Origin: a virus
IMG/VR virus record: IMGVR_UViG_3300037454_000132
Location: 1 to 58,095 of that record
Length of the DNA: 58,095 nt
Direction: 5' to 3' (one strand)
Part shown: positions 9,756 through 58,020 of the stretch, piece by piece
Layout of the letters: each line of letters begins with the position of its first letter
How positions within the stretch are numbered: position 1 is the stretch's first letter
Position numbers and translations under genes: made by a program
Notes under the pieces: model-generated
Told to the model about the DNA's origin: nothing
Databases searched by the model: none
What the model saw: the letters and a program-made list of their open reading frames with translations, nothing else

Positions 9756-12203
9756 ATGATAACCCTACAAAACGATAAGACCATTCACATCACCGTGGGC
9801 GCAAGCCGTAAGTCCACGAAATGGGCGACGCAGGAGATCACGCTTTCCGCGCTCTATACGCGCCTTGAAACGCCCCTGAGAGGCATTGAGAATATCAATG
9901 ACTATCTGGCCTTGAGCAAGGCCGAACAGGACGAGAGAAAGGACGTGGGCGGCTTTGTAGGCGGTGTGCTGAAAGGACAGCGCCGGAAAGCTGACAACGT
10001 GGAGAGCCGGGATATTGTCACGCTGGACATTGACACGATCCCCCCGTTTCAGGCCGAGCTTATACGCACACAGGCCGAGGCGTTAGGGTGCGGGTATCTG
10101 GTATACCCCACGCGGAAAGACCGTCCAGCGGCCCCCAGAAAGCGCCTGATCGTCCCTACCAACCGGAGCATGACCGTAGACGAGTACGACGCTGTGAGCC
10201 GCCGTATCGCCGCTCTGATCGGCATAGAAATGTGCGATCCGACGACCTTTGAGCCGTCCCGTCTCATGTACTGGCCGTCATGCTGCGCGGACAGCGATTA
10301 TCAGGTGTGGTATAAGGACGCCCCGGCACTGGACGTGGACAAGACGCTGGCAAGCTACACGGACTGGAAAGACTGGAACGAGAGGCCGCAAGTCCCCGGC
10401 GCGATCAGCTATCAAAAGCTGGCCGTGCGTCAGGGCGATCCTGAGAGCAAGCCCGGTGTAATCGGTGCGTTCAACCGCGTCTATGACATTTACAGCGCAA
10501 TGGACGAGCTGTTGCCGGGTATCTACGCCCCCTGCGACAATGACCCGCACAGGTTTACCTACCTGAACGGCTCCACGACGGGCGGCGCGATCATCTACGA
10601 CGACGGCAAGTTCCTGTATTCCCATCATGCAACAGACCCTTGCGGCGGGAAGCTGGTCAACGCTGCTGACCTTGTGCGGCTGCACAAATTCGGGCAGTTG
10701 GATATAAACTCCGCGATTGACACCCCGATCAACAAGCTCCCGTCCTACAAGGCGTTCTGCGAGTTCGCCGTTTCGGATCAAAAGGTTGCTACCCTTATGA
10801 TGCAGGAACGGTACAACGCCGGACAGAAAGAGTTTGAGGGCGTGGGCGCGGGGACAGCTACACAGACGGAGAACACAGACCCGGACGCATGGCTGACCGA
10901 GGCCGGTTTACAGCTCAATCCGCAGACCGGCGCAATCTACCCGACGATTGACAACATCCGAATCATTCTTGAATGTGACCCCATGCTGAAAGGCCGCTTT
11001 GCCCTGAACAAGTTTGCCGGACGCGGTGAAGTGCTGGGCGTTCTCCCGTGGGATCAGGACGGCAAGCGCCGCCTGTGGAGCGACACGGACACCAACGGCC
11101 TGTACTGGTACATGGAAAAGCGTTTCAACATCACGAAGCGGCAGAACATCGACGCGGCCCTTGATATTCACGCATCGGTACACGCTTTCAACGACGTGCA
11201 GGACTACATAAAGCGGCTGGTATGGGATATGACCCCCCGGCTTGATACCGTCTTTATAGACTATCTGGGCGCGGCTGACAACGAGTACAACCGGGCCGTG
11301 TGCCGGAAGTCTTTTACGGCGGCAATCGCACGGGCTATGGAGCCGGGATGCAAGTACGACAATATGCTGATCCTGTGCGGACGGCAAGGGCTGGGAAAAA
11401 GTACGCTGCTGGACAAAATGTCCCGTGGCTGGTTTAACGACAGCATACGGACGTTTGAGGGCAAAGAGGCGTCTGAGCTTTTGCAGGGCGTTTGGCTGGT
11501 AGAGGTTGCGGAGCTGGACGCATTCCGGCGCACGGACGTTTCCCGCATCAAACAGTTTCTTTCCCTGAGAGCTGACCGATACCGCGCGGCCTATGGCCGG
11601 AACGTCAAAGAGTTGCCCCGCTGCTGCGCGTTCTTTGGGACGTGTAATCAGATGGACTTTTTGCAGGATATGACCGGCAATCGGCGTTTCTGGCCGGTGG
11701 ACGTAGGCGAAACACTCCCTGTGGGCGAGGAAAAGGAACATCACCCCAACGTCTGGGACGACCTGACCGACGACGTGATTGACCAACTCTGGGCGGAAGC
11801 AAAGGCGCGCTGGCAGATCGGGGAACAGCTCTATTTGTCCGGTGAGATCGAGAAACAGGCACAGGAAATGCAGGAACAGCACCGCGAGGCAAGCCCGAAA
11901 GAGGGCGTGATCCTGAATTTCATCGGGCAGGAAATCCCGGAGGACTGGCAGAAGTGGACGCTTGACCGGAGGCGCGATTGGTGGGCGCAAACTACACACG
12001 GGGAAATCAAAACGGTAAAAAGAACCCGGATCACCGCCGTTGAAATCTGGTGCGAGGCGTTCAACAACAATCTGAAAGACGTGAAGCAAGCCGATTCCCG
12101 CGAGATAAATGCCGTCATTATGAAAATGCCGAACGCCCGGAGGGTAAAAAGCCCGTTCAAATGCGGCCCGTATGGGGTGCAAAGAGGTTTTGAGCTGGTG
12201 TAG
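9756..12203 (+). CDS. Primase/helicase, VirE (virulence-associated protein E) family
   Basis: 815 aa. Walker A: CGRQGLGKSTLLDKM. It has an N-terminal primase-like region and sits in the PolA/SNF2/VRR-NUC replication cluster. Confidence 0.85.
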   Translation: MITLQNDKTIHITVGASRKSTKWATQEITLSALYTRLETPLRGIENINDYLALSKAEQDERKDVGGFVGGVLKGQRRKADNVESRDIVTLDIDTIPPFQAELIRTQAEALGCGYLVYPTRKDRPAAPRKRLIVPTNRSMTVDEYDAVSRRIAALIGIEMCDPTTFEPSRLMYWPSCCADSDYQVWYKDAPALDVDKTLASYTDWKDWNERPQVPGAISYQKLAVRQGDPESKPGVIGAFNRVYDIYSAMDELLPGIYAPCDNDPHRFTYLNGSTTGGAIIYDDGKFLYSHHATDPCGGKLVNAADLVRLHKFGQLDINSAIDTPINKLPSYKAFCEFAVSDQKVATLMMQERYNAGQKEFEGVGAGTATQTENTDPDAWLTEAGLQLNPQTGAIYPTIDNIRIILECDPMLKGRFALNKFAGRGEVLGVLPWDQDGKRRLWSDTDTNGLYWYMEKRFNITKRQNIDAALDIHASVHAFNDVQDYIKRLVWDMTPRLDTVFIDYLGAADNEYNRAVCRKSFTAAIARAMEPGCKYDNMLILCGRQGLGKSTLLDKMSRGWFNDSIRTFEGKEASELLQGVWLVEVAELDAFRRTDVSRIKQFLSLRADRYRAAYGRNVKELPRCCAFFGTCNQMDFLQDMTGNRRFWPVDVGETLPVGEEKEHHPNVWDDLTDDVIDQLWAEAKARWQIGEQLYLSGEIEKQAQEMQEQHREASPKEGVILNFIGQEIPEDWQKWTLDRRRDWWAQTTHGEIKTVKRTRITAVEIWCEAFNNNLKDVKQADSREINAVIMKMPNARRVKSPFKCGPYGVQRGFELV

Positions 12204-12208
12204 AAAAA

Positions 12209-12472
12209 CGGTCTACAAAGTGGTCTACAAAGTGGTCTACAGTTGCAAAAAATTTGTAGACTTTGTAGACCGGAACGGTCTACAAATAAACAATTCGTCT
12301 ACAAATTTACAGGGTATTTGTAGACCGCTCAAAGCCTTATATTTCAAGGGTTTCCGGGACTTTATAAACAGATAAACAAATTATTCTAATAGACTATAAG
12401 AATTAGGCAGATTAGGCGGTAAAATCCCGCCTGAAACGCCTGAACGCACATATAAGTATACGCGCGCGTGTG
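12209..12472. repeat. Composite iteron-rich intergenic element, copy A
   Basis: Eight GTCTACA/TGTAGAC 7-mers (12211, 12223, 12235, 12255, 12264, 12278, 12297, 12319), AAACAGATAAACA, two hairpins, and TATACGCGCGCGTG at 12457-12470. Homologous to 21047-21286 and 46938-47210. Confidence 0.9.
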
Positions 12473-12508
12473 TTTTGTTTATGGCGCGGTTTTGGAGAGG
12501 GAACGGAT

Positions 12509-13113: not shown

Positions 13114-14482
13114 CCCCTATCCGTATCAGCAATACGCGGAGCGGGAGATCATCGAAAAACCGAACATCGGGCTTTTCCTTGACATGGGCTTAGGGAAAAC
13201 CGTTATCACCCTGACCGCCCTACAGGAAATGAAGTTTGACCGCTGGTGCGTCAACAAGACCTTGATTATCGCCCCGAAAAAGGTTGCGGAAGATACGTGG
13301 CAGACGGAGGCGCAGAAGTGGCAGCATCTACAGGGCTTGCGGATCGTCGGTGTGCTGGGGACAGCTACACAGAGAGAACACGCGCTTGACACCCCCGCCG
13401 ATATTTACGTTATCAACCGGGAAAATACGCAATGGCTGGTAGAGCATTACGGGCGGGACTGGCCGTTTGATACCGTGGTACTGGACGAAAGCAGTTCTTT
13501 CAAGAATCATCAGGCAAAGCGTTTCCGGGCCTTGCGTACCGTGCGCCCCCGGATCAACCGTCTTATCGAGCTGACCGGGACGCCCAACCCCCACGGGCTT
13601 ATGGACTTGTGGTCACAGGTCTTTCTACTGGACGGCGGAAAGCGGCTGGGGCGAACAATCAGCGTTTACCGGGATATGTATTTCAACCCGGACAAGCGCA
13701 ACCGGACTACGATATTTTCGTATGCCCCGAAAGAGGGCGCGGAACAGGAAATCCACCGGCTCATATCGGATATTTGTATCAGCATGAAAGCGTCTGACTA
13801 TCTGGATTTGCCGGAGCTGGTCTATGAGGATATTCCGGTTGTGCTGGACGACAAGGCTGCGAAAGCATACCGGCGCATGGAGCGCGACGCGGTTTTGCAG
13901 GTGGACGAAGATACCATAACGGCGACAAATGCCGCCGCGCTGTCTGGAAAGCTCCTACAGCTCTGTAACGGCGCTGTGTACGACGAAAACAGAGAGGTAG
14001 TACAAGTTCACGACTGCAAAATAGAGGCGTTCTTAGAGGCCGTGGAGGGCCTTAACGGGCAACACGCGATTGTGTGCTATTCGTTCATCCACGACAAGGA
14101 CAGGCTGCTACAGGCCCTTGAGAAAACCGGCTTGCGTGTGCGCGTGTACAAGGACACCCGCGACAAGGACGATTGGAACGCGGGAAACATCGACTTGCTT
14201 TTGATTCACCCGGCGTCTTGCGGTTACGGCCTGAATCTGCAAGAGGGAGGGCATCACATCATCTGGTTTGGCCTGACGTGGAATCTTGAAGAATACCAAC
14301 AGGCGAACAAGCGTCTGCACCGGCAGGGGCAGGATCACCCCGTTATCGTGCATCATCTGGTAGTCAAGGGCGGACGCGACGAAGATGTGATAAAGAGCCT
14401 TGAGGGAAAGGACAACGTACAAGAGGCCCTTTTGCAGTCTTTGAAAGTGAGAATCAAAGGGATCAAGGGAGGCGTGGCATGA
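13097..14482 (+). CDS. SNF2/DEAD-like helicase
   Basis: Motif I: DMGLGKT. Motif II: VVLDESSSFKN. Motif VI: QANKRLHRQGQ. AGGGAGG lies before ATG13097. Confidence 0.85.
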   Translation: MAKVYNPYPYQQYAEREIIEKPNIGLFLDMGLGKTVITLTALQEMKFDRWCVNKTLIIAPKKVAEDTWQTEAQKWQHLQGLRIVGVLGTATQREHALDTPADIYVINRENTQWLVEHYGRDWPFDTVVLDESSSFKNHQAKRFRALRTVRPRINRLIELTGTPNPHGLMDLWSQVFLLDGGKRLGRTISVYRDMYFNPDKRNRTTIFSYAPKEGAEQEIHRLISDICISMKASDYLDLPELVYEDIPVVLDDKAAKAYRRMERDAVLQVDEDTITATNAAALSGKLLQLCNGAVYDENREVVQVHDCKIEAFLEAVEGLNGQHAIVCYSFIHDKDRLLQALEKTGLRVRVYKDTRDKDDWNAGNIDLLLIHPASCGYGLNLQEGGHHIIWFGLTWNLEEYQQANKRLHRQGQDHPVIVHHLVVKGGRDEDVIKSLEGKDNVQEALLQSLKVRIKGIKGGVA

Positions 14483-14805
14483 TAGAGGTTAGAGACAATC
14501 CGCGCGCCGTGTTTGTAGACGGGCGCAGGGAGCCGACAACCGCAATGCTGGACTATATGCGGCATATCGAAATATGGTCTGGCGTCCCGGCAGACGAGGC
14601 AACCCGGCACGATTTTTGGAGCTGTCACGATTACATAGCCGCAAACGCAGCCGCCGCAGAACGGGAGTACGGAAAGGCCGTTGCGTCCCGACGCCGTGAG
14701 CAGCGCAGAACAACGGAATTCATCGGCGGCGACTATGGAATCTGTAACAACGATATGGGGATCAGTTGTTTTGACTACGGCATTTATCCGTGGGGCGACA
14801 GTTAA
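14479..14805 (+). CDS. Hypothetical protein (108 aa)
   Basis: ATGA overlap with the helicase stop. Confidence 0.6.
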   Translation: MIEVRDNPRAVFVDGRREPTTAMLDYMRHIEIWSGVPADEATRHDFWSCHDYIAANAAAAEREYGKAVASRRREQRRTTEFIGGDYGICNNDMGISCFDYGIYPWGDS

Positions 14806-14908
14806 AACAATAGCGTAACGCGAAACACGAAAAGCGACACCCGACAATCGAATCACGACAAGCGGTAAAGCGATAATCTCAAACCCCAACAGGGAGAAAG
14901 GACAGGAA

Positions 14909-15388
14909 ATGACCCTGAAAGAATTATCGCAGCTCTATTGGCTGAATCGTGAAATCGAGGCGGATCAGAGGCGGCTTGACGAGCTGGAACGCCTGAGAGG
15001 ATCACCGTCAAGCCCCCAACTAACCGGAATGCCCCACGCGCCCAACCGGAACGACAGCAAGGTTGAACGGCTGGCGGCGGAGATCGTTGACCTACAGGCG
15101 ATCATAGCCGCCCGACAGATACAGTGCATCCACGAGCGCGCGCGGCTGGAAAGGTGGATCAGTGATATTCCCGACAGCTTGACGCGGCAGGTGTTTACGT
15201 TGCGCTTTGTGGACGGCCTACAGTGGCCGCAGGTGGCCGTTTTTATCGGGGAGGGTACTACCCCTGACCGGGCAAAGAAAATCTGCTACAGGTACATAGA
15301 CAGGCAGGACGCGCGGACTGAGAGGCAGCTACGAGAGGCGGAGAAAGCAAGCCGGGAGTATGAACAGGGTTTGAGGTCGAGGCCGTGA
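14909..15388 (+). CDS. Sigma-70 region-4-like phage transcriptional regulator (DUF1492/RinA/ArpU-like late activator)
   Basis: LSQLYWLNREIE...LTGMP...DSLTRQVFTLRFVDGLQWPQVA resembles DUF1492-type regulators. It lies upstream of the packaging genes. Confidence 0.65.
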   Translation: MTLKELSQLYWLNREIEADQRRLDELERLRGSPSSPQLTGMPHAPNRNDSKVERLAAEIVDLQAIIAARQIQCIHERARLERWISDIPDSLTRQVFTLRFVDGLQWPQVAVFIGEGTTPDRAKKICYRYIDRQDARTERQLREAEKASREYEQGLRSRP

Positions 15389-15456
15389 AAAGGGGTATTC
15401 CCCTGTGTAAGCGTAAGTGTCCCCCATGTCCCGCCTGACCGTGCTATAATGGTAGA

Positions 15457-15583
15457 CGCGATAAAGCACCGTGAGGGCGCAAGGGTCTTTGCCTCCGCCC
15501 TTGCAGCCGTAGGGCAAGCCCTACGCGGGAAGCAATCGCAGGGGACACCGTGAGCGCGCGTGACTTGCGGTGTTTCCCCTTTT
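15457..15583 (+). ncRNA. Candidate small structured RNA or transcribed leader
   Basis: Extended -10 (TGCTATAAT, 15442-15450). Internal hairpins at 15479-15504 and 15508-15525. Terminator-like 10-bp GC stem at 15541-15579 followed by TTTT. No ORF. Confidence 0.3.
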
Positions 15584-15715
15584 CATAAACAGGGTACTTC
15601 CGAGAGCCGCCCCACGATCCGGGGACAGGCTGAGAGTTGACGCCCTTATGTGCAAGCGTGAGGACGCGGGACTGAGACACCCGCGCCCCCGCGCTTTTTC
15701 TTTGGAGGCGGGGCA

Positions 15716-16345
15716 ATGTACAAGCAGCAGCGCAACTATGAAAACCTGAATAAATACATCTTTGACGGCGTAGGCAAGTACGGCATCCCGGAGATCAAGC
15801 CGGAACAGTTCACGGTTGATAACTGGATCAGCTTCAACTTTGCGAAAAGCTGTGACGAGCCGGAGAAACACGGCATCCACTTTTTCATTGACGACTATCA
15901 GTTTATCCGGCTGTGGACAAACCCGGACGCCTACCTTGCCATGCTGGGGCGCTTTCAGGCGGTGTGTACGCCTGACTTTTCCACGTATACGGACTTTCCT
16001 ATGGCGATCCAGCTTTACAATCACTACCGCAAGCACTGGCTGGGCGCGTATTGGCAGCAGAACGGCGTCAAGGTCATTCCGACAATCTCATGGAGCGACG
16101 AAAGCTCCTTTGATTGGTGCTTTGATGGGGAGCCGGTAGGCGGTATGGTGGCCGTCAGCAGCGTCGGAACACAGCAGAACAAGAGAGCTACACGGCTTTT
16201 TGAGCTGGGCTATCAGGAAATGATGGACAGGCTCAAGCCGTCCGCTGTTATCATGTACGGCAATATCCCGGAGAGCTGCACCGGAAACGTGATCCCCGTT
16301 CGGGCGTTCACTACGAAATGGCGCGAATCAGACGCCGAAGATTGA
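15716..16345 (+). CDS. DUF4417 domain protein
   Basis: HGIHFFIDDYQFIRLW...TPDFSTYTDFP...NHYRKHWLGAYWQ matches DUF4417 as I recall it. GGAGG lies upstream. Confidence 0.65.
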   Translation: MYKQQRNYENLNKYIFDGVGKYGIPEIKPEQFTVDNWISFNFAKSCDEPEKHGIHFFIDDYQFIRLWTNPDAYLAMLGRFQAVCTPDFSTYTDFPMAIQLYNHYRKHWLGAYWQQNGVKVIPTISWSDESSFDWCFDGEPVGGMVAVSSVGTQQNKRATRLFELGYQEMMDRLKPSAVIMYGNIPESCTGNVIPVRAFTTKWRESDAED

Positions 16346-16388
16346 CAAGTCAAAGTATATTGACTTTATCGAAAGAGAGTGCTATAAT
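16342..16388 (+). promoter_or_regulatory. Operator palindrome plus promoter-like hexamers abutting the ART start codon
   Basis: AGTCAA-N6-TTGACT at 16348-16365. TTGACT-17 nt-TATAAT ends at 16388, and the ATG is at 16389. Confidence 0.45.
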
Positions 16389-17066
16389 ATGGGCGGCAGA
16401 GGTTCAAGCAGCGGCGGCGGATCAAGCCGCTCATTCCATACGATCCATCAAGCAAATGACTTTTTCGGCGTAGGCCGCGCGGACGGTATGTTTCCTGACT
16501 GGGAACGCGCCGTCCCGGACGACGAAAAGCAGTCCGCTATCCTGTACACGAAGCAAGCCTATATTCCGATGAACAAGCTCTTGCGGGAGGGCGAGGACGG
16601 CTATAAGAAATGGCTTGAGACGCATTCCGACAGCTATTTCCACGGTGACGCGGCTTTGATCCGTGAACACGCGGCCCGGATTGAAAGGGCTATGGACAAA
16701 TTCGACCTGAAAGAAAGCATCACCGTCTGGCGCGGCGGCAGCAGCCGTCTTGTGGGCGGCGCAACGACTGTGGAGGAATTGAAATCCTTGGTAGGCTCCA
16801 TCGTGCATGACAACGGCGTTATGAGTACCGCCGTCACCCGTGGCGGAATGTGGGACAAGAGCGGCGGAAAGAACATCGGCTATGAAATCGAAGTCCCGAA
16901 AGGCCGGGGACGCGGCGTGTTCATCGACCCCGTTTCCGCGCATCACGGCGAACAGGAGTTCATGGTACGTCCCGGAACGAAATTCAAGATCACCGGCGCG
17001 TACACGGACACCCACGGCGACGTGATTTGCAAGCTCAAGGCAATCTACCCGAAGAAACGCAAGTGA
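16389..17066 (+). CDS. ADP-ribosyltransferase (C3/Vip2-like R-S-E exotoxin fold)
   Basis: YTKQAYIPMNKLLREG, VWRG (Arg), MSTAV (STS-like), GEQEFMV (ExE). Confidence 0.8.
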   Translation: MGGRGSSSGGGSSRSFHTIHQANDFFGVGRADGMFPDWERAVPDDEKQSAILYTKQAYIPMNKLLREGEDGYKKWLETHSDSYFHGDAALIREHAARIERAMDKFDLKESITVWRGGSSRLVGGATTVEELKSLVGSIVHDNGVMSTAVTRGGMWDKSGGKNIGYEIEVPKGRGRGVFIDPVSAHHGEQEFMVRPGTKFKITGAYTDTHGDVICKLKAIYPKKRK

Positions 17067-17258: not shown

Positions 17259-17888
17259 ATGGGCGGACGCGGCTCTATCTCAAAATTCAATAACGGGAAC
17301 AGCGGCAACACGCCCCGCCCACAGACCCTTGACGACTACTTAGGGCAGAAAGGCGATCCGAAAAGCCTTGATACCGCTATGACGACGGCAAATCCCCACT
17401 GGCTGGAATCCGCGCAGAAAAAGGACGGGCTGTATACTCACAACTGTCAACGCTGTATCTGGGCGGTAGAGCTTATGCGGCGCGGCTATGACGTGGAAGC
17501 CCTGCCCCGGACAGCGGATAACACCTATGCCCTGCTTGACCCGGACAAACCGCACAGCTTTGTCAACGTGGGCGATCCCCCGTTGCAGTTCAGCGCGGCA
17601 ATCGGCAACATCTGGTACAAGGCCAAAGCAACCGACGTGAAGAACGAAATCCTGAGACACCCGGAGGGATCACGCGGCGCGCTGGTTATGCACGGCCTGA
17701 AAAAAGGCCATGTGTGCAACTGGGAGATCGTCAAGGGCAAGGTGGTTATCTATGACGGGCAGGTAGGCCAAAAGCATACCTTGACCGACCTGATGAAAAA
17801 GGGCTTTGTGTCGTTCAAGGTGGCCCGTATGGATAACGTCGGCATCACCGACCTTGCGAAAGACTTTGTGAAAAGGAGGCAGTCATAA
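17259..17888 (+). CDS. Papain-fold (Tox-PL1/glutamine-deamidase-like) effector domain protein
   Basis: YTHNCQRCIWAVEL (Cys), KKGHVCNWEIV (His), VIYDGQ (Asp). N-terminus is MGGRGS. GGGAGG lies upstream. Confidence 0.55.
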   Translation: MGGRGSISKFNNGNSGNTPRPQTLDDYLGQKGDPKSLDTAMTTANPHWLESAQKKDGLYTHNCQRCIWAVELMRRGYDVEALPRTADNTYALLDPDKPHSFVNVGDPPLQFSAAIGNIWYKAKATDVKNEILRHPEGSRGALVMHGLKKGHVCNWEIVKGKVVIYDGQVGQKHTLTDLMKKGFVSFKVARMDNVGITDLAKDFVKRRQS

Positions 17889-18060: not shown

Positions 18061-18095
18061 CCCCGCAACGGCGAAAAGCTGTTGCGGGGATTTTT
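18061..18095 (+). terminator. Rho-independent terminator
   Basis: CCCCGCAAC-11 nt loop-GTTGCGGGG followed by ATTTTT. Confidence 0.7.
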
Positions 18096-21046: not shown

Positions 21047-21286
21047 GGTAAACAGATTGGTCTACAAAGTGGTCTACAGTTGCCGAAAATCTGTAGCAAC
21101 TGTAGACCGCAACTGTTTATCTGTAACCTATCTGTTTACCTATTTGTAGACCGCTCAAAGCCTTATGTATCAAGGCTTTCCGGGCTTTTATAAACAGATA
21201 AACAGGTTGTTCTAATAGACCCCTTGAAATAGGGAGTAATCAGGCTGAAAACCGCCTGAGCGCGCATATATGTATACGCGCGCGTG
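21047..21286. repeat. Composite iteron-rich intergenic element, copy B
   Basis: GTCTACA/TGTAGAC at 21060, 21072, 21101 and 21145 (plus a degenerate TGTAGCA). AAACAGAT repeats in both orientations. AAAGCCTT/AAGGCTTT hairpin. TATACGCGCGCGTG at 21273-21286. Confidence 0.9.
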
Positions 21287-21304
21287 GAAACTGTAGCTGA
21301 CGCC

Positions 21305-21333
21305 TTGTAAACATCAACACGGAATGCTATAAT
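21305..21333 (+). promoter_or_regulatory. Sigma70-type promoter ahead of the morphogenesis block
   Basis: TTGTAA-17 nt-TATAAT, with TGC directly upstream of the -10 (extended -10). Confidence 0.5.
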
Positions 21334-21735: not shown

Positions 21736-21806
21736 TTTTTTCGCAGAGGGTGTCAGTAATGACGCCCTCTTTTCATATCCGCCAAAAGGTGGTGAGAGAA
21801 AACCCC

Positions 21807-40745: not shown

Positions 40746-41843
40746 ATGTCTATGAATCCCTTTGTTGACCGGTTTTCGGTCAACGGCGGCGCAAGCAACG
40801 CCGTTATCGGCGCAAGCGGCGATAGGTACTACGAGGGCGTAGACCTGACGCTGAAATTCGCAACAGAAATTGCCGCCTCTCCCTACAGCGGCAACCCGTG
40901 GGCGTGGATCAAGGCCCGTATTCAGGCTGCGGATTTCACCGGCATCCACGTGAACGACTACATCCCGTTCGTGACCACGGACAACAAGACCCTGAAAGCC
41001 TGTGTGGGCGGCATCAACACCTACAAGGGCTACGGCGACACGGCGGTAGGCAATCACATTGATTTCATCTGCCGTGAGCTGTGGCCTACCAGAAAGCCCG
41101 TCAACCCCGTCAACTACAACAACGGCCTGATCCCCGTCGAAACCCTGACCGGCGACGGTACGACCACTACCTTTGTTCTGGCAAAGGAAATGGACGGTAT
41201 CGCCTCCGTCACGCAGGGCGGCGAGGGCTTGACTGGCTACACCTACGACGCCTCCACGTTCACGCTGACCTTTGCGGAGGCTCCCGCCGCTGGCACGATC
41301 ACCGTCACCGGCACCGGCACGGAACATCCGTGGCTGGCCTCTGACCTCTATCACTGGCTGAACAGCCTTGCCGGTCAGGTGCCGAACGGTACGGGCCTCA
41401 ATCCCGCCGTGAAGCACGTGGATTACACGCAGGGCGGCGTGTACTACTACCTCCCGGCCAACCTGAAAAACGTGATCGTGGAAAAGAGGGCGTACCTGCC
41501 GAAGCGGTACAGCGCGTCCGGTCTGCTTTCCGACGACAACGCCGGAGCGTGGGCCGATATTGGCAAGCTGTGGCTCCCGTCCGAATACGAGGTCTACGGT
41601 GGCCCCGTCTGGGGCGGCAAGAACGGCTATGCGCTGGCCGGTAACTGCGTGCAGTACCCGATTTTCGCCCACAACATGAACCGCGTCAAGAACAGGAGCG
41701 GTAGCCGGGAGCGGTGGTGGGTACTCTCTGTCTATTCAGGCAATACCACGGATTGGTGCCATGTCAACAACAGCGGCGGTGCCGGCAACACCGGCGCGTC
41801 CTACACCAGCCGTGCCGCGCCCGTCTGCTTCCGTATCTCATAA
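40746..41843 (+). CDS. DGR target protein 1 (C-type-lectin-like/DUF1566-like variable C-terminus)
   Basis: Its 3' end carries VR1. The C-terminus is WWVLSVYSGNTTDWCHVNNSGGAGNTGASYTSRAAPVCFRIS. Confidence 0.85.
   Translation: MSMNPFVDRFSVNGGASNAVIGASGDRYYEGVDLTLKFATEIAASPYSGNPWAWIKARIQAADFTGIHVNDYIPFVTTDNKTLKACVGGINTYKGYGDTAVGNHIDFICRELWPTRKPVNPVNYNNGLIPVETLTGDGTTTTFVLAKEMDGIASVTQGGEGLTGYTYDASTFTLTFAEAPAAGTITVTGTGTEHPWLASDLYHWLNSLAGQVPNGTGLNPAVKHVDYTQGGVYYYLPANLKNVIVEKRAYLPKRYSASGLLSDDNAGAWADIGKLWLPSEYEVYGGPVWGGKNGYALAGNCVQYPIFAHNMNRVKNRSGSRERWWVLSVYSGNTTDWCHVNNSGGAGNTGASYTSRAAPVCFRIS
41715..41835 (+). repeat. DGR variable region VR1
   Basis: 121 nt aligned to TR 42414-42534 with 15 mismatches. 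Fourteen are at TR adenines and one is at TR T42511. Confidence 0.9.
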
Positions 41844-42362: not shown

Positions 42363-42413
42363 GCAAATCGGTTATTTTCTGCTGCATAAAATCCTGAGAG
42401 TAGCCGGGATAAT

Positions 42414-42534
42414 TGGTGGGTACTCTCTGTCTATTCAGGCAATACCACGAATTGGTGCAATGTCAACAACAACGGCAATGCCAACAACAACAACGCGTCC
42501 AACACCAACATTGCCGCGCCCGTCTGATTCCGTA
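42414..42534 (+). repeat. DGR template repeat (TR)
   Basis: Non-coding copy of the VRs, rich in AAC triplets (caacaacaacggcaatgccaacaacaacaac). No downstream GC hairpin. Confidence 0.9.
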
Positions 42535-42758
42535 AAACACCGCTGATTCCGAAACAGCATATCCCCTATGGCCCGTATAGAGTAAGCGCCCCGCGCGCTG
42601 AAATTAGTGCCTACCCCAAAGCAAATGTTTACGGAAGGAGAAAATAACCGTCCCGAATCGAAAAGGGTAAATACGCACCGTGACGCGGCTGGCCGGACGC
42701 TTCTTGCATGGCCGGGGATGGCGACTGAGCTGACGGAATCCAGCAAGTACCCGGTTAC

Positions 42759-44087
42759 ATGACCATTGCCGCTATGGAGATCACAACGCGCCCCTACAAT
42801 AACACTCTGCGCGGTGCTTTCCCCCAGTTGAAAGAGGCAAACGAATTGAATAGTCAGGAACGACACGAAGCGCGCTACCAGCGCCGGAAAGCAGCACGGG
42901 CCGCGAAACGTCGGGAGAAGATCGGAAAGTATGACGACTTTGACCGGCTATCCTCCGTCCCCGCGATCCTCCATGCGAACTGGGAAACGCGGCAGGGCGT
43001 GATGTTCAAGGCAAACGTAGCGCGATACAACATGAATTATTACAAGAACGCTACACGGCAGTCAAAGGATTTGCGCGAGGGAAAAGACGTGCGGCGGTCA
43101 TTCTACGTTTTCGATATTCGGGAGCGTGGGAAGCTGCGGCACATTCACAGTCTGCATTACTCCGAACGTGTGATCCGGCGCTCCGCCTGTACCAACGCCT
43201 TTGTTCCTGTTCTCTCAAACGGTCTGATTTACGACAACGGGGCAAGCCTGAAAGGAAAAGGCGTGTCTTTCGCTGCGAATCGGTGTGAGGCACACTTGCA
43301 TAAGTATTTCCGGGAAACCGGGAGCAATGAGGGTTATATCCTGATAATCGACTTCAAAGGCTACTTTGACCATATTCTGCATGAGCCTTTGAAAGAACTC
43401 ATTGACCGGGCGTTTGAGGACAAGCGGATTGTCAACTTGAGCTACAGCTTTATCGACGCGACCAACCGGGACAAGCCGCCCGAACAACACGGGCAGGGCT
43501 TGTACATCGGGCCGGAGGACAGTCAGATTTACGCCGTCGCCTACCCAAATCGGATTGACCACAAGATCAAAGACGAGCTGCGGCAAAAGTATTACAACCG
43601 CTACATGGACGATTCCTACATCATTCACCGCGATAAGGACGTTCTACAGGCTATTCTTGACGTTCTGCTGAAAGAGTACGCGAAATACGGTATTATCCCT
43701 AACCCGAAGAAAACGCAGATCGTGAAGCTCTCAAAGGGCTTTACGTACCTTAAAACCCGCTATTACCTGACCGAAACCGGACGGGTAATCAAAAAGGCGG
43801 ATCATAGCTGCATCGTGCGCGAAAGGCGGAAGCTGAAAAGGCTACACGGGCTGTACGTGGCAGGTGAGGTTACACTTGACCAAATCGTACAGTCCTATAT
43901 GTCGTGGCGCGGCTCAATCCTGAAACGGGATGCCTACCGCTCTGTGCAAAGCATGGACGCCCTGTTCTTTGGACTTTACGGCGTCAAGCCGTGGAGAAAT
44001 CTTAAAAAGAAACGAGGTAAGTACAATGGACGAAACCCGCGATCAGATCATCGGGGAGATTACCGCCCTGAAATCCCTGCTGCGTGA
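42759..44087 (+). CDS. DGR reverse transcriptase
   Basis: LYIGPEDSQIYA (DGR-type IGxxxSQ) and NRYMDDSYI (YxDD). Confidence 0.9.
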   Translation: MTIAAMEITTRPYNNTLRGAFPQLKEANELNSQERHEARYQRRKAARAAKRREKIGKYDDFDRLSSVPAILHANWETRQGVMFKANVARYNMNYYKNATRQSKDLREGKDVRRSFYVFDIRERGKLRHIHSLHYSERVIRRSACTNAFVPVLSNGLIYDNGASLKGKGVSFAANRCEAHLHKYFRETGSNEGYILIIDFKGYFDHILHEPLKELIDRAFEDKRIVNLSYSFIDATNRDKPPEQHGQGLYIGPEDSQIYAVAYPNRIDHKIKDELRQKYYNRYMDDSYIIHRDKDVLQAILDVLLKEYAKYGIIPNPKKTQIVKLSKGFTYLKTRYYLTETGRVIKKADHSCIVRERRKLKRLHGLYVAGEVTLDQIVQSYMSWRGSILKRDAYRSVQSMDALFFGLYGVKPWRNLKKKRGKYNGRNPRSDHRGDYRPEIPAA

Positions 44088-46937: not shown

Positions 46938-47210
46938 GGTAAACAGATTGGTCTACAAAGTGGGCTACAGTTTCGGAAAGTTTGTAGACTTTGTAGACCG
47001 GCGCGGTCTACAAATAAACAGATTTTTTGCAACTGTAGACCGATTTGTAGACCGTTCAAAGCCTTGTGTATCAAGGGTTTTCAGCTATTCGTAAACAGAT
47101 AAACAGATATTTCTAATAGACTTATGAAAACAGAGGAATTAGGCGGTAAAACCCCGCCTGACACGCCTATACGCATATGTCATATACGCGCGCGTGTATT
47201 TGTAGACCGA
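46938..47210. repeat. Composite iteron-rich intergenic element, copy C
   Basis: GTCTACA/TGTAGAC at 46951, 46983, 46992, 47006, 47034, 47046 and 47201. AAACAGATAAACAGAT. Hairpins. TATACGCGCGCGTG at 47183-47196. Confidence 0.9.
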
Positions 47211-47269: not shown

Positions 47270-47334
47270 AGTCAAAAGTTATTGACAAGTCTATGAACGT
47301 GTGCTATAATTCAGACAGTCAAAAAACTTTGACT
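47270..47334 (+). promoter_or_regulatory. Early promoter with two flanking operators
   Basis: AGTCAA-N6-TTGACA (47270-47287; TTGACA is the -35), 17 nt, TATAAT at 47305-47310, then AGTCAA-N6-TTGACT at 47317-47334. Confidence 0.75.
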
Positions 47335-47571: not shown

Positions 47572-47829
47572 ATGATTAAGTTCTACAAGGTCAAAGATAC
47601 GGAGATCAGAAAGGCCGCGAAAGTGGACGAGGATGGAAAGGTTGTGGCGGTGGTCGCAATCATCGGACGGATCGGTGAGCTGGTTGAACGCGAGATCATC
47701 AGCGACGTAGAGAATTTCAACCGTGTCCGGGATCGCTGGTTGGTTATGCCGAAAGAGGCAATCGACACGGAACGCTGCGACGTAACCTATGAGACGCTTG
47801 CAGAGGCGAAAGCGAGTATCGCAGAGTGA
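47572..47829 (+). CDS. Hypothetical protein (85 aa)
   Basis: AAGGAGG lies upstream. A GC hairpin follows at 47830-47845. Confidence 0.6.
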   Translation: MIKFYKVKDTEIRKAAKVDEDGKVVAVVAIIGRIGELVEREIISDVENFNRVRDRWLVMPKEAIDTERCDVTYETLAEAKASIAE

Positions 47830-47897
47830 CGCCCCTCCGGGGGCGGTAATGCGGGAGGCCGGTCACAACCCCGGCCACAGAAAGAGAGGCAAGAGCA

Positions 47898-49050: not shown

Positions 49051-49115
49051 AGTCAAAAGGTGTTGACAAGTCTATGTTCGTTTGCTATACTGTGCATAGT
49101 CAAAAATCATTGACT
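49051..49115 (+). promoter_or_regulatory. Early promoter with two flanking operators (paralog of 47270-47334)
   Basis: AGTCAA-N6-TTGACA (49051-49068), 17 nt, TATACT at 49086-49091, then AGTCAA-N6-TTGACT at 49098-49115. Confidence 0.75.
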
Positions 49116-51918: not shown

Positions 51919-52098
51919 ATGGAAAACGTATTCGGGGGCGCGGCTGTGCTGTGCATCTATCTTGGGCCGCTGCTGTTGGCACTGGCCGTAGGCGGGTTTA
52001 TTTCGGACGTACTTTTGCCGCGCTGCCCGTTCCTGCTCCGTCTGCTGGAACGGCTGACCGGCGTAGATTTAGGAGGTAATGACTATGAGGACGATTGA
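51919..52098 (+). CDS. Small membrane protein (59 aa)
   Basis: GGAGG lies 9 nt before ATG51919 (MENVFGGAAVLCIYLGPLLLALAVGGFI). Preferred over the Arg-rich ORF 51879..52079. Confidence 0.45.
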   Translation: MENVFGGAAVLCIYLGPLLLALAVGGFISDVLLPRCPFLLRLLERLTGVDLGGNDYEDD

Positions 52099-53134
52099 TA
52101 GGTTTCTGGGCTGTCTGGTGGGTGGCGCGCTGGGGGACGCTCTGGGCTACCCCGTCGAGTTTATGAGCATGAATGACATATGCCGCATCTACGGCCACCG
52201 GGGGATCAGGGAGCCGCTTGTAAACCGGCTGGACAAGACCGCGCATATCTCCGACGACACGCAAATGACCTTGTTCACGGCGAATGGGCTTTTGCTGGCG
52301 CACAACGATGGGCTTGATCTTACTGACGCCCTATGGATCGCGTATCAGCGGTGGTATTACACTCAGACGATGCGGTGTGAGAACATCGAGTATACGATCC
52401 GCCGCGCCGGTGATCCACTTCCGTACATTCTGGATCAACACGCACTTCACGCTTGCCGCGCTCCCGGTACTACCTGTCTGACGGAGCTTGGCAACGGACA
52501 CCGGGGCGCTCCCGGCAAGAATCTGAATGACCGTAAGGGCTGTGGCGGCGTCATGCGTGTTGCGCCCTGTGGTCTGTTCTTTGCGGAGGAACCGGACGTT
52601 GCGTGTCTGGCAGCGGTCAAGGCCGCAGCTCTGACGCACGGCCACCCGACAGGCTACACGGCGGCGGGGGCGTTTGCGTACATGATCGCCCGGATTGTGA
52701 AAGACGGGATTTCCATTCGGGCGGCGGCGGAGGCGGCTATGCAGCTTGTCCCGGCTATCTCCGACAACACGGAAACGGCTGAGGCAATCGAAATGGCCCT
52801 GTTCTATGCGGAACAGGACACCTACCCGCAGAAAGCTATAAACGTGCTGGGCGAGGGCTGGACGGCTGAGGAAGCCCTTGCAATCGGCCTGTACTGCGCT
52901 CTGAGAGGTAAGACCACAAAGGAAGCCCTGATACTTGCCGTCAATCACAAGGGCGACAGCGACAGCACAGGCGCGATTTGCGGCAATATCGTAGGCGCGT
53001 ACTACGGCTATGACGCGCTTCCGGCTGACTGGATCAAGGCGCTTGAGCTTGAGGGTTTTATCCGCGTGACGGCCTTTGAGCTTTACAACAACAGCGACAG
53101 CAAAAGAAAGGAGTACAAGGATGCTGAAAAGTGA
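52085..53134 (+). CDS. ADP-ribosylglycohydrolase (ARH/DraG family)
   Basis: GGALGDALGYPVEF, HISDDTQMT, GCGGVMRVAP, HGHPTGY, GDSDSTGAICGNIVGAYYG. An alternative ATG is at 52079. Confidence 0.85.
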   Translation: MRTIDRFLGCLVGGALGDALGYPVEFMSMNDICRIYGHRGIREPLVNRLDKTAHISDDTQMTLFTANGLLLAHNDGLDLTDALWIAYQRWYYTQTMRCENIEYTIRRAGDPLPYILDQHALHACRAPGTTCLTELGNGHRGAPGKNLNDRKGCGGVMRVAPCGLFFAEEPDVACLAAVKAAALTHGHPTGYTAAGAFAYMIARIVKDGISIRAAAEAAMQLVPAISDNTETAEAIEMALFYAEQDTYPQKAINVLGEGWTAEEALAIGLYCALRGKTTKEALILAVNHKGDSDSTGAICGNIVGAYYGYDALPADWIKALELEGFIRVTAFELYNNSDSKRKEYKDAEK

Positions 53135-53738: not shown

Positions 53739-54527
53739 ATGTTCGACGCGATTAGAAAACCCACAGGCGAAGTGATACACGTTTATGCTGTGGAGGGCCA
53801 CAAATTTCTGATAACCGATGGCGGAATGTTCCTTTGGGACGATAAGGTGAACTACGCTCCGGTCAGCGGACAGGCCCCGGAAGTCAAAGCTGCACCGAAG
53901 AAAGACAACGCCAAGAATACCGCAACACTGTTCAAGGCTCTTGAGCTGGACTTTTCACTTGCGGATTTGCTTTCGCAGATGTGTTCTGGGGAGCTGGAAA
54001 TGTTTGTCGGAGATTACTTCACGACCCGTCTGAAAAACGGCAAGGAGGTTGATTTTGTTTGCACCGACAAAGACGGGCAGTCCTACCGGTTTGAGAGCCG
54101 GGATTGTCTGGGCCGGTATGATCCCATGACGAAGATTGACCGCTTTTTCAATGCGGTCTGGGCGGAGCTTCCTGATCCTTTGACGGACAGGATTATGGAG
54201 ATCATCAGGCAGTACAAGTCCGCTGACGGTGAGCTGATGGAACGTAAGTGCAAGCTGTTCCTCCCGTCCGCCTCTGAAATCTTCCCGGCTGACGAGTGCT
54301 ACGGGGATCAGGGTGTGTATGAACAGCTTGAGTGGTATAAGGACGTACACAACCGCATCCGGGCTTACGAGAAAGGCGGGGCCGCTGACTGGTACTGGAC
54401 GCAATCTCCCCGCTCAGGCAATACCACGCATTGGTGCACTGTCTACAACTACGGCGGTGCCGACTACGACCTCGCGTCCTCCACCACCATTGCCGCGCCC
54501 GTCTGCTTCCGTATTCCCCGAATCTAA
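53739..54527 (+). CDS. DGR target protein 2 (remote), C-type-lectin-like variable C-terminus
   Basis: The 3' end carries VR2. The C-terminus WYWTQSPRSGNTTHWCTVYNYGGADYDLASSTTIAAPVCFRI parallels target 1. Confidence 0.85.
   Translation: MFDAIRKPTGEVIHVYAVEGHKFLITDGGMFLWDDKVNYAPVSGQAPEVKAAPKKDNAKNTATLFKALELDFSLADLLSQMCSGELEMFVGDYFTTRLKNGKEVDFVCTDKDGQSYRFESRDCLGRYDPMTKIDRFFNAVWAELPDPLTDRIMEIIRQYKSADGELMERKCKLFLPSASEIFPADECYGDQGVYEQLEWYKDVHNRIRAYEKGGAADWYWTQSPRSGNTTHWCTVYNYGGADYDLASSTTIAAPVCFRIPRI
54404..54503 (+). repeat. DGR variable region VR2
   Basis: 100 nt aligned to TR 42435-42534 with 15 mismatches, all at TR adenines. Confidence 0.9.
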
Positions 54528-55398: not shown

Positions 55399-55429
55399 TG
55401 CCCCGGAGGATTTACCTCCGAGGCATTTT
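55395..55429. terminator. Bidirectional terminator hairpin between convergent genes
   Basis: AAAATGCC-CCGGAGG-attta-CCTCCG-AGGCATTTT. It overlaps the last integrase codons. Confidence 0.65.
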
Positions 55430-57019
55430 CAGTATGAGCGCAAATACGTTCCCGTAAAAAACGAGTTCGTATGCGCGCGTTATGGTGGAGCATTGCGCGC
55501 GGCATCCGAACACCCCGGCCTTGCGTAACCGATCAAAGTCTGTGAATCGTACTTGTGCTTTGTCCCCGCCGAAATTGAAATTGATGGTCATTTCATCGTC
55601 GGTGATGTAGATGGAGTTCACAAACACGTCTACGAGCCGTTTTTGCCATGCTCTGTCCTTAAAGTCAGCTTCCCGGAATTGCAGTAGGAAAAACTCAATA
55701 TGCTCCCGCGTCAGATGAAAGCCGCCGTCGAGCTGCGTTTCAGCGATAGCCTTTGAAAGAGCTGTCCGCTGGGCGTCCAGCTCCGATAGGCGGCTTTTTG
55801 TTATATCCGTAAAGGGCAGACCGTTTTCTACGGCGCGGATCAGGTTGTTCATTGCCGTTTCCGTTTCGTGTAGCTGTGCTTCCAGCCCCTTGACCTTTTC
55901 CCGCCGCTGATCCTCCGCGAGATAGAACGCCCACACGCTGTCCGTTATAAACTGGATCGCTTCATCGTCCATGACCAGACCTTGCACCTGATCCATAACG
56001 TAGTCCTCAATCCAGTCCTGCCGGATCGCTTTTCGGGCGCAGCTTTTCCCGCGCTTATGGTTTGCGCAAAGGTAGTAGTTGTACTTTGCCCCGGTCTTGC
56101 TTGTACCGCTCTCTCCGACCATCTGAGCGCCGCAGGAGCCGCAGAACAGCTTGTCGGTAAGAAGATAGTCCGCCTTGCTCCAACGGGCCGCAGGAGCGCG
56201 TTGATTGACCTGTAGGAGCTTTTGCACTTTGTAGAACGTGTCTTTATCCACGATTGCCGGTACAAGCCCCTCCGTTCGGATTTCCCCGCCCTTGAAGCTG
56301 TAAATCCCGATGTACTTTTCATTCGACAAGACGGTACGCAGACTGTTCTTTGTGAACGGTTTGCCTTGGCTTGTGTGTAGTCCCTCCGCGTTGAGCTGAT
56401 TGATTATTTCGGTGATCGTCCACCCCTCCGCGTACATGGAATAGATGCGGCTGACGAGCGGGGCGCTGTCAGGGTCTATCACAAATTTGTGTTCCGGGGA
56501 GAGTTTGTAACCGAGCGGAACGCGCCCACCCGTGAATTGTCCTTTTTTGGCTGCTTCCCGGTTGCCGCGCTTGATGTTTTGGGAAAGCTGCAAGGAGTAG
56601 TATTCGGCCATACCCTCAAGGACACTCTCAAGGATCACACCCTCCGGGCCGTCCGGCATCGTCTCAGCGACATACTCTACCCGGACGCCGTGTTTTCGGC
56701 ACCGGTATTTGTTGAACGTGATTTCCTCCCGGTTGCGCCCGAAGCGGTCAACTTTCCAGACGATAATGACCTGAAATTGCTTTTTAGCACAGTCCGAAAG
56801 CATCTGCTGAAAATCGTCCCGGTTGTCGTTCCTCCCGGTCATAGCCCTGTCAATGTATTCGTGTATGATCGTGTAGCCTCTGGCCTCTGCATACTTTCGC
56901 GCTGCTGCAAGCTGCCCCTCTATAGACTGTTCGCCCTGACTGTGCGAGGAATACCGGGCATAAACGACGGCGTTCTTTCCGCCTTTGTCGAGGCCGTTAT
57001 AGTTTATCTGGACGCTCAT
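55412..57019 (-). CDS. Large serine recombinase (integrase)
   Basis: N-terminal resolvase motif VVYARYSSHSQ. Recombinase domain. Zinc ribbon CGSCGAQM...YYLCANHKRGKSC. GAGGGGG lies before ATG57019. Confidence 0.9.
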   Translation of the reverse strand: MSVQINYNGLDKGGKNAVVYARYSSHSQGEQSIEGQLAAARKYAEARGYTIIHEYIDRAMTGRNDNRDDFQQMLSDCAKKQFQVIIVWKVDRFGRNREEITFNKYRCRKHGVRVEYVAETMPDGPEGVILESVLEGMAEYYSLQLSQNIKRGNREAAKKGQFTGGRVPLGYKLSPEHKFVIDPDSAPLVSRIYSMYAEGWTITEIINQLNAEGLHTSQGKPFTKNSLRTVLSNEKYIGIYSFKGGEIRTEGLVPAIVDKDTFYKVQKLLQVNQRAPAARWSKADYLLTDKLFCGSCGAQMVGESGTSKTGAKYNYYLCANHKRGKSCARKAIRQDWIEDYVMDQVQGLVMDDEAIQFITDSVWAFYLAEDQRREKVKGLEAQLHETETAMNNLIRAVENGLPFTDITKSRLSELDAQRTALSKAIAETQLDGGFHLTREHIEFFLLQFREADFKDRAWQKRLVDVFVNSIYITDDEMTINFNFGGDKAQVRFTDFDRLRKAGVFGCRAQCSTITRAYELVFYGNVFALILKMPRR

Positions 57020-57070
57020 TGTTCGCCCCCTCAAAGAATAGGTAGATCACTTTGCCGCGTCGGATCGCTC

Positions 57071-57541: not shown

Positions 57542-57581
57542 CTTGTTTTGTCCTTTCTGCCAGTACGAAAATTTTTTCTGA

Positions 57582-57656
57582 AAAATAGTCAAAGTGTATT
57601 GACAAGTCAAAATTCATAGACTATAATTACTGCGTAGCAGTCAAGAAACGTGGACT
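57582..57656. promoter_or_regulatory. Genetic switch: rightward early promoter with operators, and a divergent repressor promoter
   Basis: AGTCAA-N6-TTGACA (57587-57604), 17 nt, TATAAT at 57622-57627, then AGTCAA-N6-TGGACT at 57639-57656. On the - strand, TTGACT-17 nt-TATTTT reads toward the repressor. Confidence 0.7.
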
Positions 57657-57795: not shown

Positions 57796-58020
57796 GTGCC
57801 GGAGAATTGGACTGCCGAGGTCGTAGGGCGTATGCACGTCGCCCGGATCACGCAAAGGGCGCTGGCTAAGGAATGCGGGTATTCCGAAGCATACGTTTCC
57901 GAAGTCCTGAACAGCAGACGTGACAAGGGCAGCGAACAGACGAAAGTGAACATCTACGCCGCTCTTGAGCGTCTTGAGGCCGCACATTCCGCGTCCGAGG
58001 ACGCGACGGTGCAGAGCTGA
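57796..58020 (+). CDS. Cro-like/XRE HTH protein
   Basis: ITQRALAKECGYSEAYVSEVLN. GGGAG lies 7 nt before GTG57796. The ORF track start at 57775 is TTG. Confidence 0.65.
   Translation: MPENWTAEVVGRMHVARITQRALAKECGYSEAYVSEVLNSRRDKGSEQTKVNIYAALERLEAAHSASEDATVQS

Follow-up and report, generated by a model that had tools for sequence, protein, structure and literature searches.

We analyzed IMG/VR virus record IMGVR_UViG_3300037454_000132 over its full length of 58,095 nucleotides (the window). It contains three intergenic elements of about 250 to 280 bp, copies A, B, and C, which lie in the same orientation and are rich in short repeats (iterons). Copy A follows directly on the gene for an 815-aa primase-helicase homologous to the Rep initiators of Staphylococcus aureus pathogenicity islands (SaPIs). 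From sequence comparison, we conclude that each element is probably a copy of the phage replication-origin module, of the type used by SaPIs and other phage-inducible chromosomal islands (PICIs), and is bound by Rep. That copy A is an origin we consider likely; that copies B and C also fire is a tentative proposal, which we would sooner doubt than assert. A sequence-only reading of the same DNA had named an iteron-type origin as an alternative to activator-dependent middle or late promoters, and it is this alternative that we favor, as a SaPI Rep homolog adjoins the element and the anatomy matches that of SaPI-type origins (PMC9371898).

Anatomy of the copies and the adjoining Rep homolog

The three copies share one internal order, as the sequence-only reading had held: a three-way MAFFT alignment of ~300 columns gives a mean column identity of 77%. 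All six features that it listed are found in place (Table 1), with corrections to the copy B hairpin, the quality of the proposed −10 hexamer, and the end of the element. The window has 23 GTCTACA sites, where 3.5 are expected (100 shuffles, maximum 9), and 19 of the 23 lie inside the copies (8 in A, 4 in B, and 7 in C); AAACAGAT occurs 10 times, against 1.6 expected by shuffling, with 8 inside the copies. The CG-run string TATACGCGCGCGTG, described as invariant, is so, with exact matches only at 12457, 21273, and 47183, where it sits in runs of strictly alternating purines and pyrimidines of 18 nt (A), 27 nt (B), and 19 nt (C). The GGCGG/CCGCC hairpin, by contrast, had been assigned to all copies and is missing from B, where TCAGGC/GCCTGA stands instead. 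Each element also extends ~10 to 15 nt past the CG run and ends in one further inverted iteron.

Of all 40-nt stretches in the genome, the poorest in GC lies in copy A (12360-12400, 17.5% GC; the 0.1-percentile is 25%). The lowest 40-nt GC content is 25% in copy C, within the lowest 0.1% of the genome, and 33% in copy B, the most degenerate copy in its AT minimum and its count of GTCTACA. Of the three copies, each of which had been said to head a gene block, only A clearly does so, as B and C precede moron-type genes that have sigma-A promoters of their own.

The Pfam VapE-like domain is recognized in the primase-helicase at 1e-75. Residues 384-740 align to residues 20-374 of SaPI1 Rep1 (PDB 7PDS) with an E value of 4.7e-71 (phmmer), and when 12 C-terminal domains are combined into a profile, the match covers residues 278-465 of the 477 in Rep1 (E value, 3.5e-21). 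SaPI Reps are self-loading initiator-helicases in which a C-terminal winged helix, within the residues after 346, reads penta- or hexanucleotide iterons; in SaPI5, primase and Rep are fused (PMC9371898). The C-terminal domain of the phage protein, about residues 700-815, is thus presumed to be its iteron reader.

SaPI origins have 6 to 12 iterons immediately downstream of rep and an AT-rich region near the center, flanked on either side by two or more iterons, those on one side running opposite to those on the other (PMC9371898). In copy A, the first iteron lies 6 nt past the stop codon of the rep-like gene, and there are 8 GTCTACA and 2 or 3 AAACAGAT-class sites in both orientations; the iteron length is about 6 to 8 nt, versus 5 to 6 nt in SaPIs. 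The core is flanked by two tandem iterons on the left and, on the right, by inverted iterons, one clear site in the window and two in relatives.

We propose that the primase-helicase would recognize iterons of the GTCTACA and AAACAGAT classes through its C-terminal domain, a winged helix. Because the iteron arrays on the two sides of the AT-rich center face each other, self-loading helicase hexamers would assemble on either flank and melt the core, which comprises the proximal iterons and TAATAGAC (17 to 25% GC). The fused primase would then begin synthesis for a PolA/Gp2.5-type replisome. Copy A would be the ancestral origin, and B and C would be duplicates kept in register with it by concerted evolution, binding the same protein and serving either as additional origins or, in cis, as partners that bind Rep (crr-like or for copy control). 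Retention of the whole core in B and C points to full origin competence. Our guess is that the conserved core (TAATAGAC, a TAGG..CCTA inverted repeat, and the alternating run) is recognized by conserved replisome components as the place for melting or priming, and a transcript through the origin may serve as its activator.

This proposal can be taken further, to a version that we find rather doubtful. In it, two or three co-oriented, concertedly evolving full origins at module boundaries would all fire or load helicase and would double as Rep-controlled switches of moron promoters. The alternating run, prone to form Z-DNA or cruciforms, and the TAGG..CCTA repeat would be unrecognized origin parts, such as a supercoil-sensing or priming site, and the class would be shared by phages of Clostridia, Clostridioides difficile, Clostridium tetani, and Enterococcus.

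Distribution of the element and iteron specificity

Relatives were sought in IMG/VR, GTDB genomes, and metagenomes with the pattern TCTAATAG or TAATAGAC, 40 to 72 nt, and TA(TA)CGCGCGCG. These scans recovered ~37 distinct elements in Clostridia prophages, with hosts among Oscillospiraceae, Lachnospiraceae, Ruminococcus albus KH2T6, and metagenome-assembled genomes from rabbit, rumen, and human gut. The layout of the family is constant. Distal iterons in both orientations are followed by a short hairpin (AAAGCC..GGCTTT), two tandem iterons, and, after 5 to 8 nt, (T)TC TAATAGAC. Then come a repeat of the AATAG type, an inverted repeat on TAGG(G/C)..(G/C)CCTA, and (C/T)ATATACGCGCGCG in an alternating run, and one or two inverted iterons precede the ribosome-binding site (RBS) of the gene that follows. 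Across the family the core is kept, whereas the iterons vary by phage (GTCAACA, GTAAACA, TGTAACA, TGTTACA, GGAACAT, GGTAACA, CTTACA, GTAATA, and GTTTCT) and are identical among all copies of any one genome.

In the relatives examined, copy A is always upstream of the VRR-NUC gene and usually directly 3′ of the primase gene. The position equivalent to that of copy C is filled in L131, L136, L143, L166, L184, and L196. Copy B is missing from L001, L135, and a common human-gut phage, and terL there abuts the portal gene. The SaPI-type family keeps one origin per replicon; here, three copies are found in the window and, at the same three syntenic positions, in contig 3300045988_099300, and two, with ten iterons in identical arrangement, in the common gut phage. 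Since a single origin is a habit of that family rather than its definition, the three copies mark a variant.

Cultured phages have the element once. In Enterococcus phage phiFL4A, C. difficile phage phiCDKH02, and C. tetani phage phiCT453A, whose primases are homologous to that of the window at 40 to 42%, a single copy lies between the VapE/Rep gene and VRR-NUC, laid out as two forward iterons, the core, and two reverse iterons. The iteron is GGATAC in phiFL4A (one cluster, 14718-15026), TGTCAACA in phiCDKH02, and GGGTAC/GGGAAC in phiCT453A. The phiCDKH02 core has ATTAGGCATA..TATGCCTAAT and alternating TA/CA runs, and the same core inverted repeat is found in phiCT453A. The presence of one copy in each of the three suggests that the element is an old, conserved part of the replication module; by these comparisons, its multiplication appears peculiar to the clade of the window.

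The statement that the element does not belong to a described family holds as far as we checked. No blastn match to the element was obtained among INPHARED phages or PLSDB plasmids. Rfam gave no gathering-level match within the elements, only two chance matches to miRNA families (E values, 0.02 to 0.9) far below gathering scores. A literature search on the CG-run string returned unrelated papers only. A 14-mer scan of IMG/VR with TATACGCGCGCGTG yielded mostly chance matches, and a scan with TGTAGACCGNTCAAAGCC yielded one unrelated coding match. Within the reach of these searches, we met no earlier description of the multicopy state, of the conserved core that includes the alternating run, or of so broad a spread among Firmicutes phages.

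To ask how the Rep homolog relates to the iterons, we compared C-terminal-domain identity at equal helicase-core identity between pairs of phages with like and unlike iterons (W denotes the window). L133 and L151, which share GTCAACA, have identities of 0.92 in the helicase core and 0.82 in the C-terminal domain; the pairs W-L133 and W-L151, with different iterons, both have 0.91 in the core and only 0.73 and 0.65, respectively, in the C-terminal domain. At a core identity of 0.87, C-terminal identity is 0.74 for L175-L140 (TGTAACA and TGTTACA, one palindrome-like motif) but 0.54 for W-L175 and 0.47 for W-L138, again pairs with different iterons. C-terminal-domain identity thus appears to track iteron similarity, indirectly supporting Rep as the reader of its cognate iterons. 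In the same comparison, neither the VRR-NUC protein, whose gene is equally adjacent, nor the SNF2 protein shows such tracking.

Several points weigh against Rep-bound origins. The covariation rests on few independent pairs; L135 and L140 are an exception, sharing iterons at a C-terminal identity of only 0.52; and physical linkage of rep and copy A may contribute to it. One winged helix would have to read both iteron classes of the window. At least one open reading frame (ORF) separates rep from the element in L140 and L147, and the primase gene of L128 is downstream of SNF2, so that VRR-NUC, not rep, is the invariant neighbor. Every copy is co-oriented with transcription and lies at an operon boundary, with copy B of contig 099300 following a terminator. 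The right-hand iteron overlaps the −35 hexamer of a moron promoter in copy B of the window (TTGTAAACA, 21305-21333) and of L133 (GTGTTGACA, L133 21040-21075); an iteron-binding protein could therefore shut this promoter, and the overlap possibly suits a regulatory side-function. One origin suffices for SaPIs and for the cultured relatives, and origins in this family are assigned from sequence. Lastly, the conserved core motifs, the two iteron classes, and the existence of B and C are all left unexplained by the SaPI model.

Alternative readings and the Ltr site

The strongest rival, on balance unlikely, also takes copy A as the origin and makes B and C Rep-binding arrays: cis enhancers like crr of phage P4 that loop to the origin, sites for handcuffing or titration in copy control, a means of excluding related phages, or repressors or insulators of moron promoters. 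It fits the single copy that suffices for relatives with the same replication module, and also copy B, which is dispensable in several relatives and most degenerate here (4 GTCTACA; AT minimum, 0.33). The iteron placed over a sigma-A moron −35 at 21305 (TTGTAAACA) and in L133 (GTGTTGACA) would be at home in such an array, and P4 itself uses ori together with a distant, iteron-bearing crr. Yet B and C keep more than iterons: the inverted repeat, TAATAGAC, the alternating run, and the flanking iterons are all retained, and mere binding sites would need no core. The AT minimum of copy C is, moreover, within the lowest 0.1% of the genome.

Activator-dependent middle or late promoters, the reading considered plausible at the outset, have distinctly less to commend them. 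An iteron-bound phage protein would recruit RNA polymerase to TAATAGAC, and the downstream part would be a leader, possibly for antitermination. The copies are co-oriented with genes, and in many members the next RBS is 25 to 40 nt past the CG run; the first proximal iteron (xxxACA, −35-like) lies 16 to 17 nt upstream of TAATAG; copy B of contig 099300 stands directly before the portal gene; and late regions of the RinA type likewise combine variable upstream repeats with some 120 bp of conserved sequence (PMC3152322). However, a sigma-A-like −10 hexamer is lacking. TCTAAT, taken earlier as a good −10, has C in place of the key A at −11, and TAATAG lacks the T at −7; the sigma-70 scan calls no −10/−35 promoter inside any copy, matching only downstream, at 21305-21333. 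Position argues in the same direction: copy C of L143 faces a convergent helix-turn-helix gene, only a moron equipped with a promoter stands between copy C of L166 and a convergent integrase gene, and the single-copy homologs are located within the replication module.

The regulator proposed for such promoters, a sigma-like protein of 159 aa (14909-15388), is a late activator of the Ltr (RinA/ArpU/sigma70_r4-like) kind. Ltr proteins bind direct repeats just distal to their own gene, and their specificity resides in the C-terminal part (Quiles-Puchalt et al., PMC3753634). Such repeats, followed by an extended −10, are found right after the ltr stop codon, and none of the three copies follows an ltr gene. 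Every relative has two or three such repeats after ltr and then TGnTAnAAT, and the repeats follow the recognition helix of Ltr: VKK, AKK, or ARK goes with TGTCCC, VKM (L151 and L134) goes with TGTT[AGT]C, and ARRA (L001) goes with TGTCAC. The iterons do not follow Ltr, as L133 and L151 share GTCAACA and differ in both Ltr helix and Ltr site. We therefore rejected the protein as the iteron binder once its own TGTCCC repeats were found, and the idea that it serves middle or late promoters in the copies lacks support, given this separate, canonical, covarying site with its good extended −10.

Behind the Ltr site, upstream of DUF4417, a GC-rich leader of ~260 nt (15450-15715) is conserved in sequence among the window, L191, L133, L171, L151, and L134. 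Rfam searches with the E value relaxed to 1 give no match to it, and it is possibly a cis-acting RNA of a kind not yet described.

Intrinsic terminators at 18061-18089 and 21745-21770 lie directly before the RBSs of two genes, the one that leads the terS-terL group (18126) and portal. They leave no room for a promoter, so the packaging and structural genes seem to need read-through by antitermination; this need counts in favor of the promoter reading. The portal-side terminator hairpin is kept in L133.

We also looked for an RNA in the copies themselves. The hairpin region that separates TAATAGAC from the CG run folds more stably than shuffled sequences (mean z, about −2). Its reverse complement, though, equals or surpasses it in 18 of 30 members, with no plus-strand (G·U) preference, and RNAalifold on the MAFFT alignment finds no consensus structure for the region. 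A plus-strand RNA leader was rejected on these two grounds, and for the same reasons we treat the hairpin as a DNA-level inverted repeat. Hairpin H1, considered as a terminator, was discarded as well, having a weak, often mismatched stem and a short T run.

Improbable, in our judgment, is a reading in which another small DNA-binding protein of the phage (for example, of the ribbon-helix-helix type) reads the iterons, the copies being sites for silencing like that by omega or by mycobacteriophage stoperators, for partition, or for DNA architecture. The omega protein of plasmid pSM19035 binds heptad arrays at three promoter regions that are both operators and centromeres, and the copies here are heptamer arrays in both orientations at the same number of loci. 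Iteron types diversify fast among close relatives, like immunity-type specificities, and the genome has many small uncharacterized ORFs. No ParA/ParB or family-universal candidate binder was found among its genes, however: the 141-aa ORF at 1949-2374 (the most diverged early protein relative to L133), the 108-aa ORF at 14479-14805, and the 99-aa ORF after copy A were rejected, being not family-universal or without a DNA-binding signature. The phage integrates by a serine integrase, its CI-type operator is a different palindrome, TTGACAAGTCAA, found at four sigma-A promoters, and a Rep-bound origin explains position and architecture beside the Rep homolog with no new factor. A pac-site role was dropped too; TerS is P22 gp3-like, and nothing links terS to the three sites.

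A miniature inverted-repeat transposable element, insertion sequence remnant, or chance repeat, suggested by the multicopy nature only, is highly improbable, as the copies are syntenic in diverged phages, their iterons change in concert within a genome, terminal inverted repeats, target duplications, and a transposase are lacking, and INPHARED phages and PLSDB plasmids contain no matches.

Genome context and comparison with known systems

The window closes into a circle and represents a complete genome of 57,968 bp. An exact 127-bp duplication at its ends (1-127 and 57969-58095) indicates that the assembly is circularly closed. It belongs to a temperate siphophage with nearly all genes in one orientation, for which reason GC skew is uninformative.

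Table 1. Coordinates of the three copies and of other features in the window
Feature	Position	Strand	Remarks
Copy A	12204-12485	+	Directly after rep-like gene
A, distal iterons	12210-12326		3 forward, 12-nt A/T spacer, 2 reverse, 2 forward, 1 reverse
A, hairpin H1	12331-12353		
A, proximal tandem iterons	12364-12382		Two, TAAACAGAT/TAAACAAAT
A, TAATAGAC	12387-12394		
A, nested inverted repeat	12403-12446		
A, alternating purine/pyrimidine run	12456-12473		
A, inverted iteron-like GTTTTGTTTAT	12472-12483		
Copy B	21047-21300	+	Between terL plus 118-aa gene and portal module
B, iterons	21048-21151		
B, hairpin H1	21157-21179		
B, proximal iterons	21190-21207		
B, TAATAGAC	21213-21220		
B, TCAGGC/GCCTGA	21240-21259		
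B, alternating run	21260-21286		
B, CTGTAGC	21291-21298		
Copy C	46938-47210	+	After holin terminator, ahead of accessory (moron) block
C, iterons	46941-47052		
C, hairpin H1	47058-47080		
C, proximal iterons	47091-47108		
C, TAATAGAC	47114-47121		
C, inverted repeat	47138-47168		
C, alternating run	47181-47199		
C, inverted iteron TTTGTAGACC	47199-47208		
Sigma-A promoter of moron after B	21305-21333		
Sigma-A promoter of moron after C	about 47283		
cro-like gene, exonuclease, Gp2.5-type single-stranded DNA-binding protein, PolA, ThyX		+	After repressor, before primase-helicase
VapE-family primase-helicase	9756-12203	+	815 aa
99-aa ORF, then VRR-NUC, then SNF2 helicase			After copy A
sigma70_r4-like regulator (Ltr)	14909-15388		159 aa, phrog_36
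Ltr site, direct repeats GTGTCCCCCATGTCCCGCC	15417-15435		Right after ltr stop codon
Ltr site, extended −10 TGCTATAAT	15442-15450		
DUF4417, toxin-type morons, terS, terL, 118-aa gene			Between sigma-like regulator and copy B
Small moron with own sigma-A promoter and terminator, then portal ... lysin, holin			Between copies B and C
Accessory block			8 kb, after copy C
Serine integrase	55412-57034	−	
CI-like repressor	57071-57610	−	
TTGACAAGTCAA promoters	16341-16368, 47281-47308, 49062-49089, 57598-57625		Strong, sigma-A
ADP-ribosyltransferase exotoxin-like gene	16389-17066		
Glutamine-deamidase-like papain-fold toxin gene	17259-17888		
Distant ADP-ribosylglycohydrolase	52079-53134		
Diversity-generating retroelement	42568-42837, 41701-41835, 42400-42534, 54379-54513, 42759-44087		
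Type-P5 twister ribozyme (RF02684)	47820-47874	+	
CTACAC(A/G) motif sites	2299, 9644, 10850, 13357, 21030, 22317, 27786, 30413, 33997, 44424, 46860, 53702		

At the four strong promoters listed in Table 1, the palindrome TTGACAAGTCAA lies across the −35 hexamer and is probably the CI/Cro operator; TTGACCAGTCAA takes its place in L166. Three of the four drive moron or accessory genes, namely, the ADP-ribosyltransferase gene and blocks starting near 47293 and 49156. The ADP-ribosyltransferase, the deamidase-like toxin, and the ADP-ribosylglycohydrolase may belong together, as toxin and antidote or for host takeover. Twelve sites, some at gene junctions and others within genes, carry a short motif built around CTACAC(A/G), such as ACTACACACAAGAGA or GGGGACAGCTACACAGACGG.

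The genome also has a diversity-generating retroelement. A match to RT-2 RNA (RF03077) at 116 bits extends across the beginning of an ORF of 442 aa, presumed to encode the reverse transcriptase, and a 135-nt repeat recurs in copies at 86% and 73% identity. The repeats likely comprise a template region and a pair of variable regions, of which one lies at a distance of 12 kb in a gene of the accessory block (53739-54527). The type-P5 twister ribozyme, which scores 62.9 bits against a gathering score of 37.6, is placed ~600 nt downstream of copy C, among small accessory ORFs.

If Rep-bound origins are the right interpretation, an origin in this large group of Firmicutes temperate phages (those of C. 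difficile, C. tetani, and Enterococcus and abundant Clostridia prophages of the human gut), where origins are unannotated and unmapped as far as we found, could be recognized by its signature: two forward iterons, an AT-rich core with the TAGG..CCTA repeat and alternating run, and two reverse iterons, beside VapE/Rep and VRR-NUC genes. These phages would then be tied mechanistically to the SaPI/PICI replicon, which bears on cross-talk between helpers and satellites and on origin-based phage resistance of the Per type. Two or three copies under concerted evolution provide a natural experiment on why a small replicon keeps several origins, and phage-specific iterons beside a nearly homologous reader domain make a compact system for decoding winged-helix/iteron specificity. 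Assigning the sigma-like protein to its own site corrects a plausible error of the promoter reading.

Among known systems, the regions served by Ltr proteins (RinA, ArpU, and LtrA-C) resemble the elements in having phage-specific direct repeats upstream of a conserved region (PMC3753634; PMC3152322). They differ in that the window has a separate Ltr site (15417-15450), with TGTCCC repeats distinct from the iterons and covarying with the Ltr helix. The closer match is the SaPI/PICI origin. In keeping with it, the adjoining protein here is a Rep1 homolog, C-terminal domain included, fused to a primase as in PriRep5; 8 to 12 iterons start just after its stop codon; the AT-rich center has opposed iterons on both sides; and the iteron sequence varies among elements with related Reps. 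Unlike the elements described here, the SaPI origin has no long core kept across phages in its description (PMC9371898). A SaPI is, in addition, a satellite with one origin, whereas the window is a full temperate phage with its own PolA, single-stranded DNA-binding protein, and exonuclease, two iteron classes, and a replicon type in which two or three complete copies occur per genome.

The alpha primase-helicase of P4 has a C-terminal iteron-binding domain, and its iterons occur at more than one locus, ori and crr, all needed in cis. By description this is a likeness; the P4 host is a proteobacterium, and P4 ori and crr differ in structure, whereas the copies here are full duplicates. Origins of Streptococcus thermophilus Sfi21-type and lactococcal phages are noncoding repeat regions beside the primase gene and confer the Per phenotype. 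They match the elements, by description, as repeat-rich noncoding regions directly 3′ of a VirE/P4-like primase gene in Firmicutes temperate siphophages, and unlike the elements are single copy. Multiple origins are found in T4 (oriA to -G), T7 (primary and secondary), and SPP1 (oriL and oriR, with two copies of the initiator-binding repeats far apart), but those phages use other initiators and mechanisms (R-loops from phage promoters; G38P). To our knowledge, there is no case of multiple origins for a Rep/VapE-type initiator. The kind to which the element probably belongs, the Rep/iteron origin of the SaPI type, is known, and its presence in three copies sets the window apart from its single-copy relatives.

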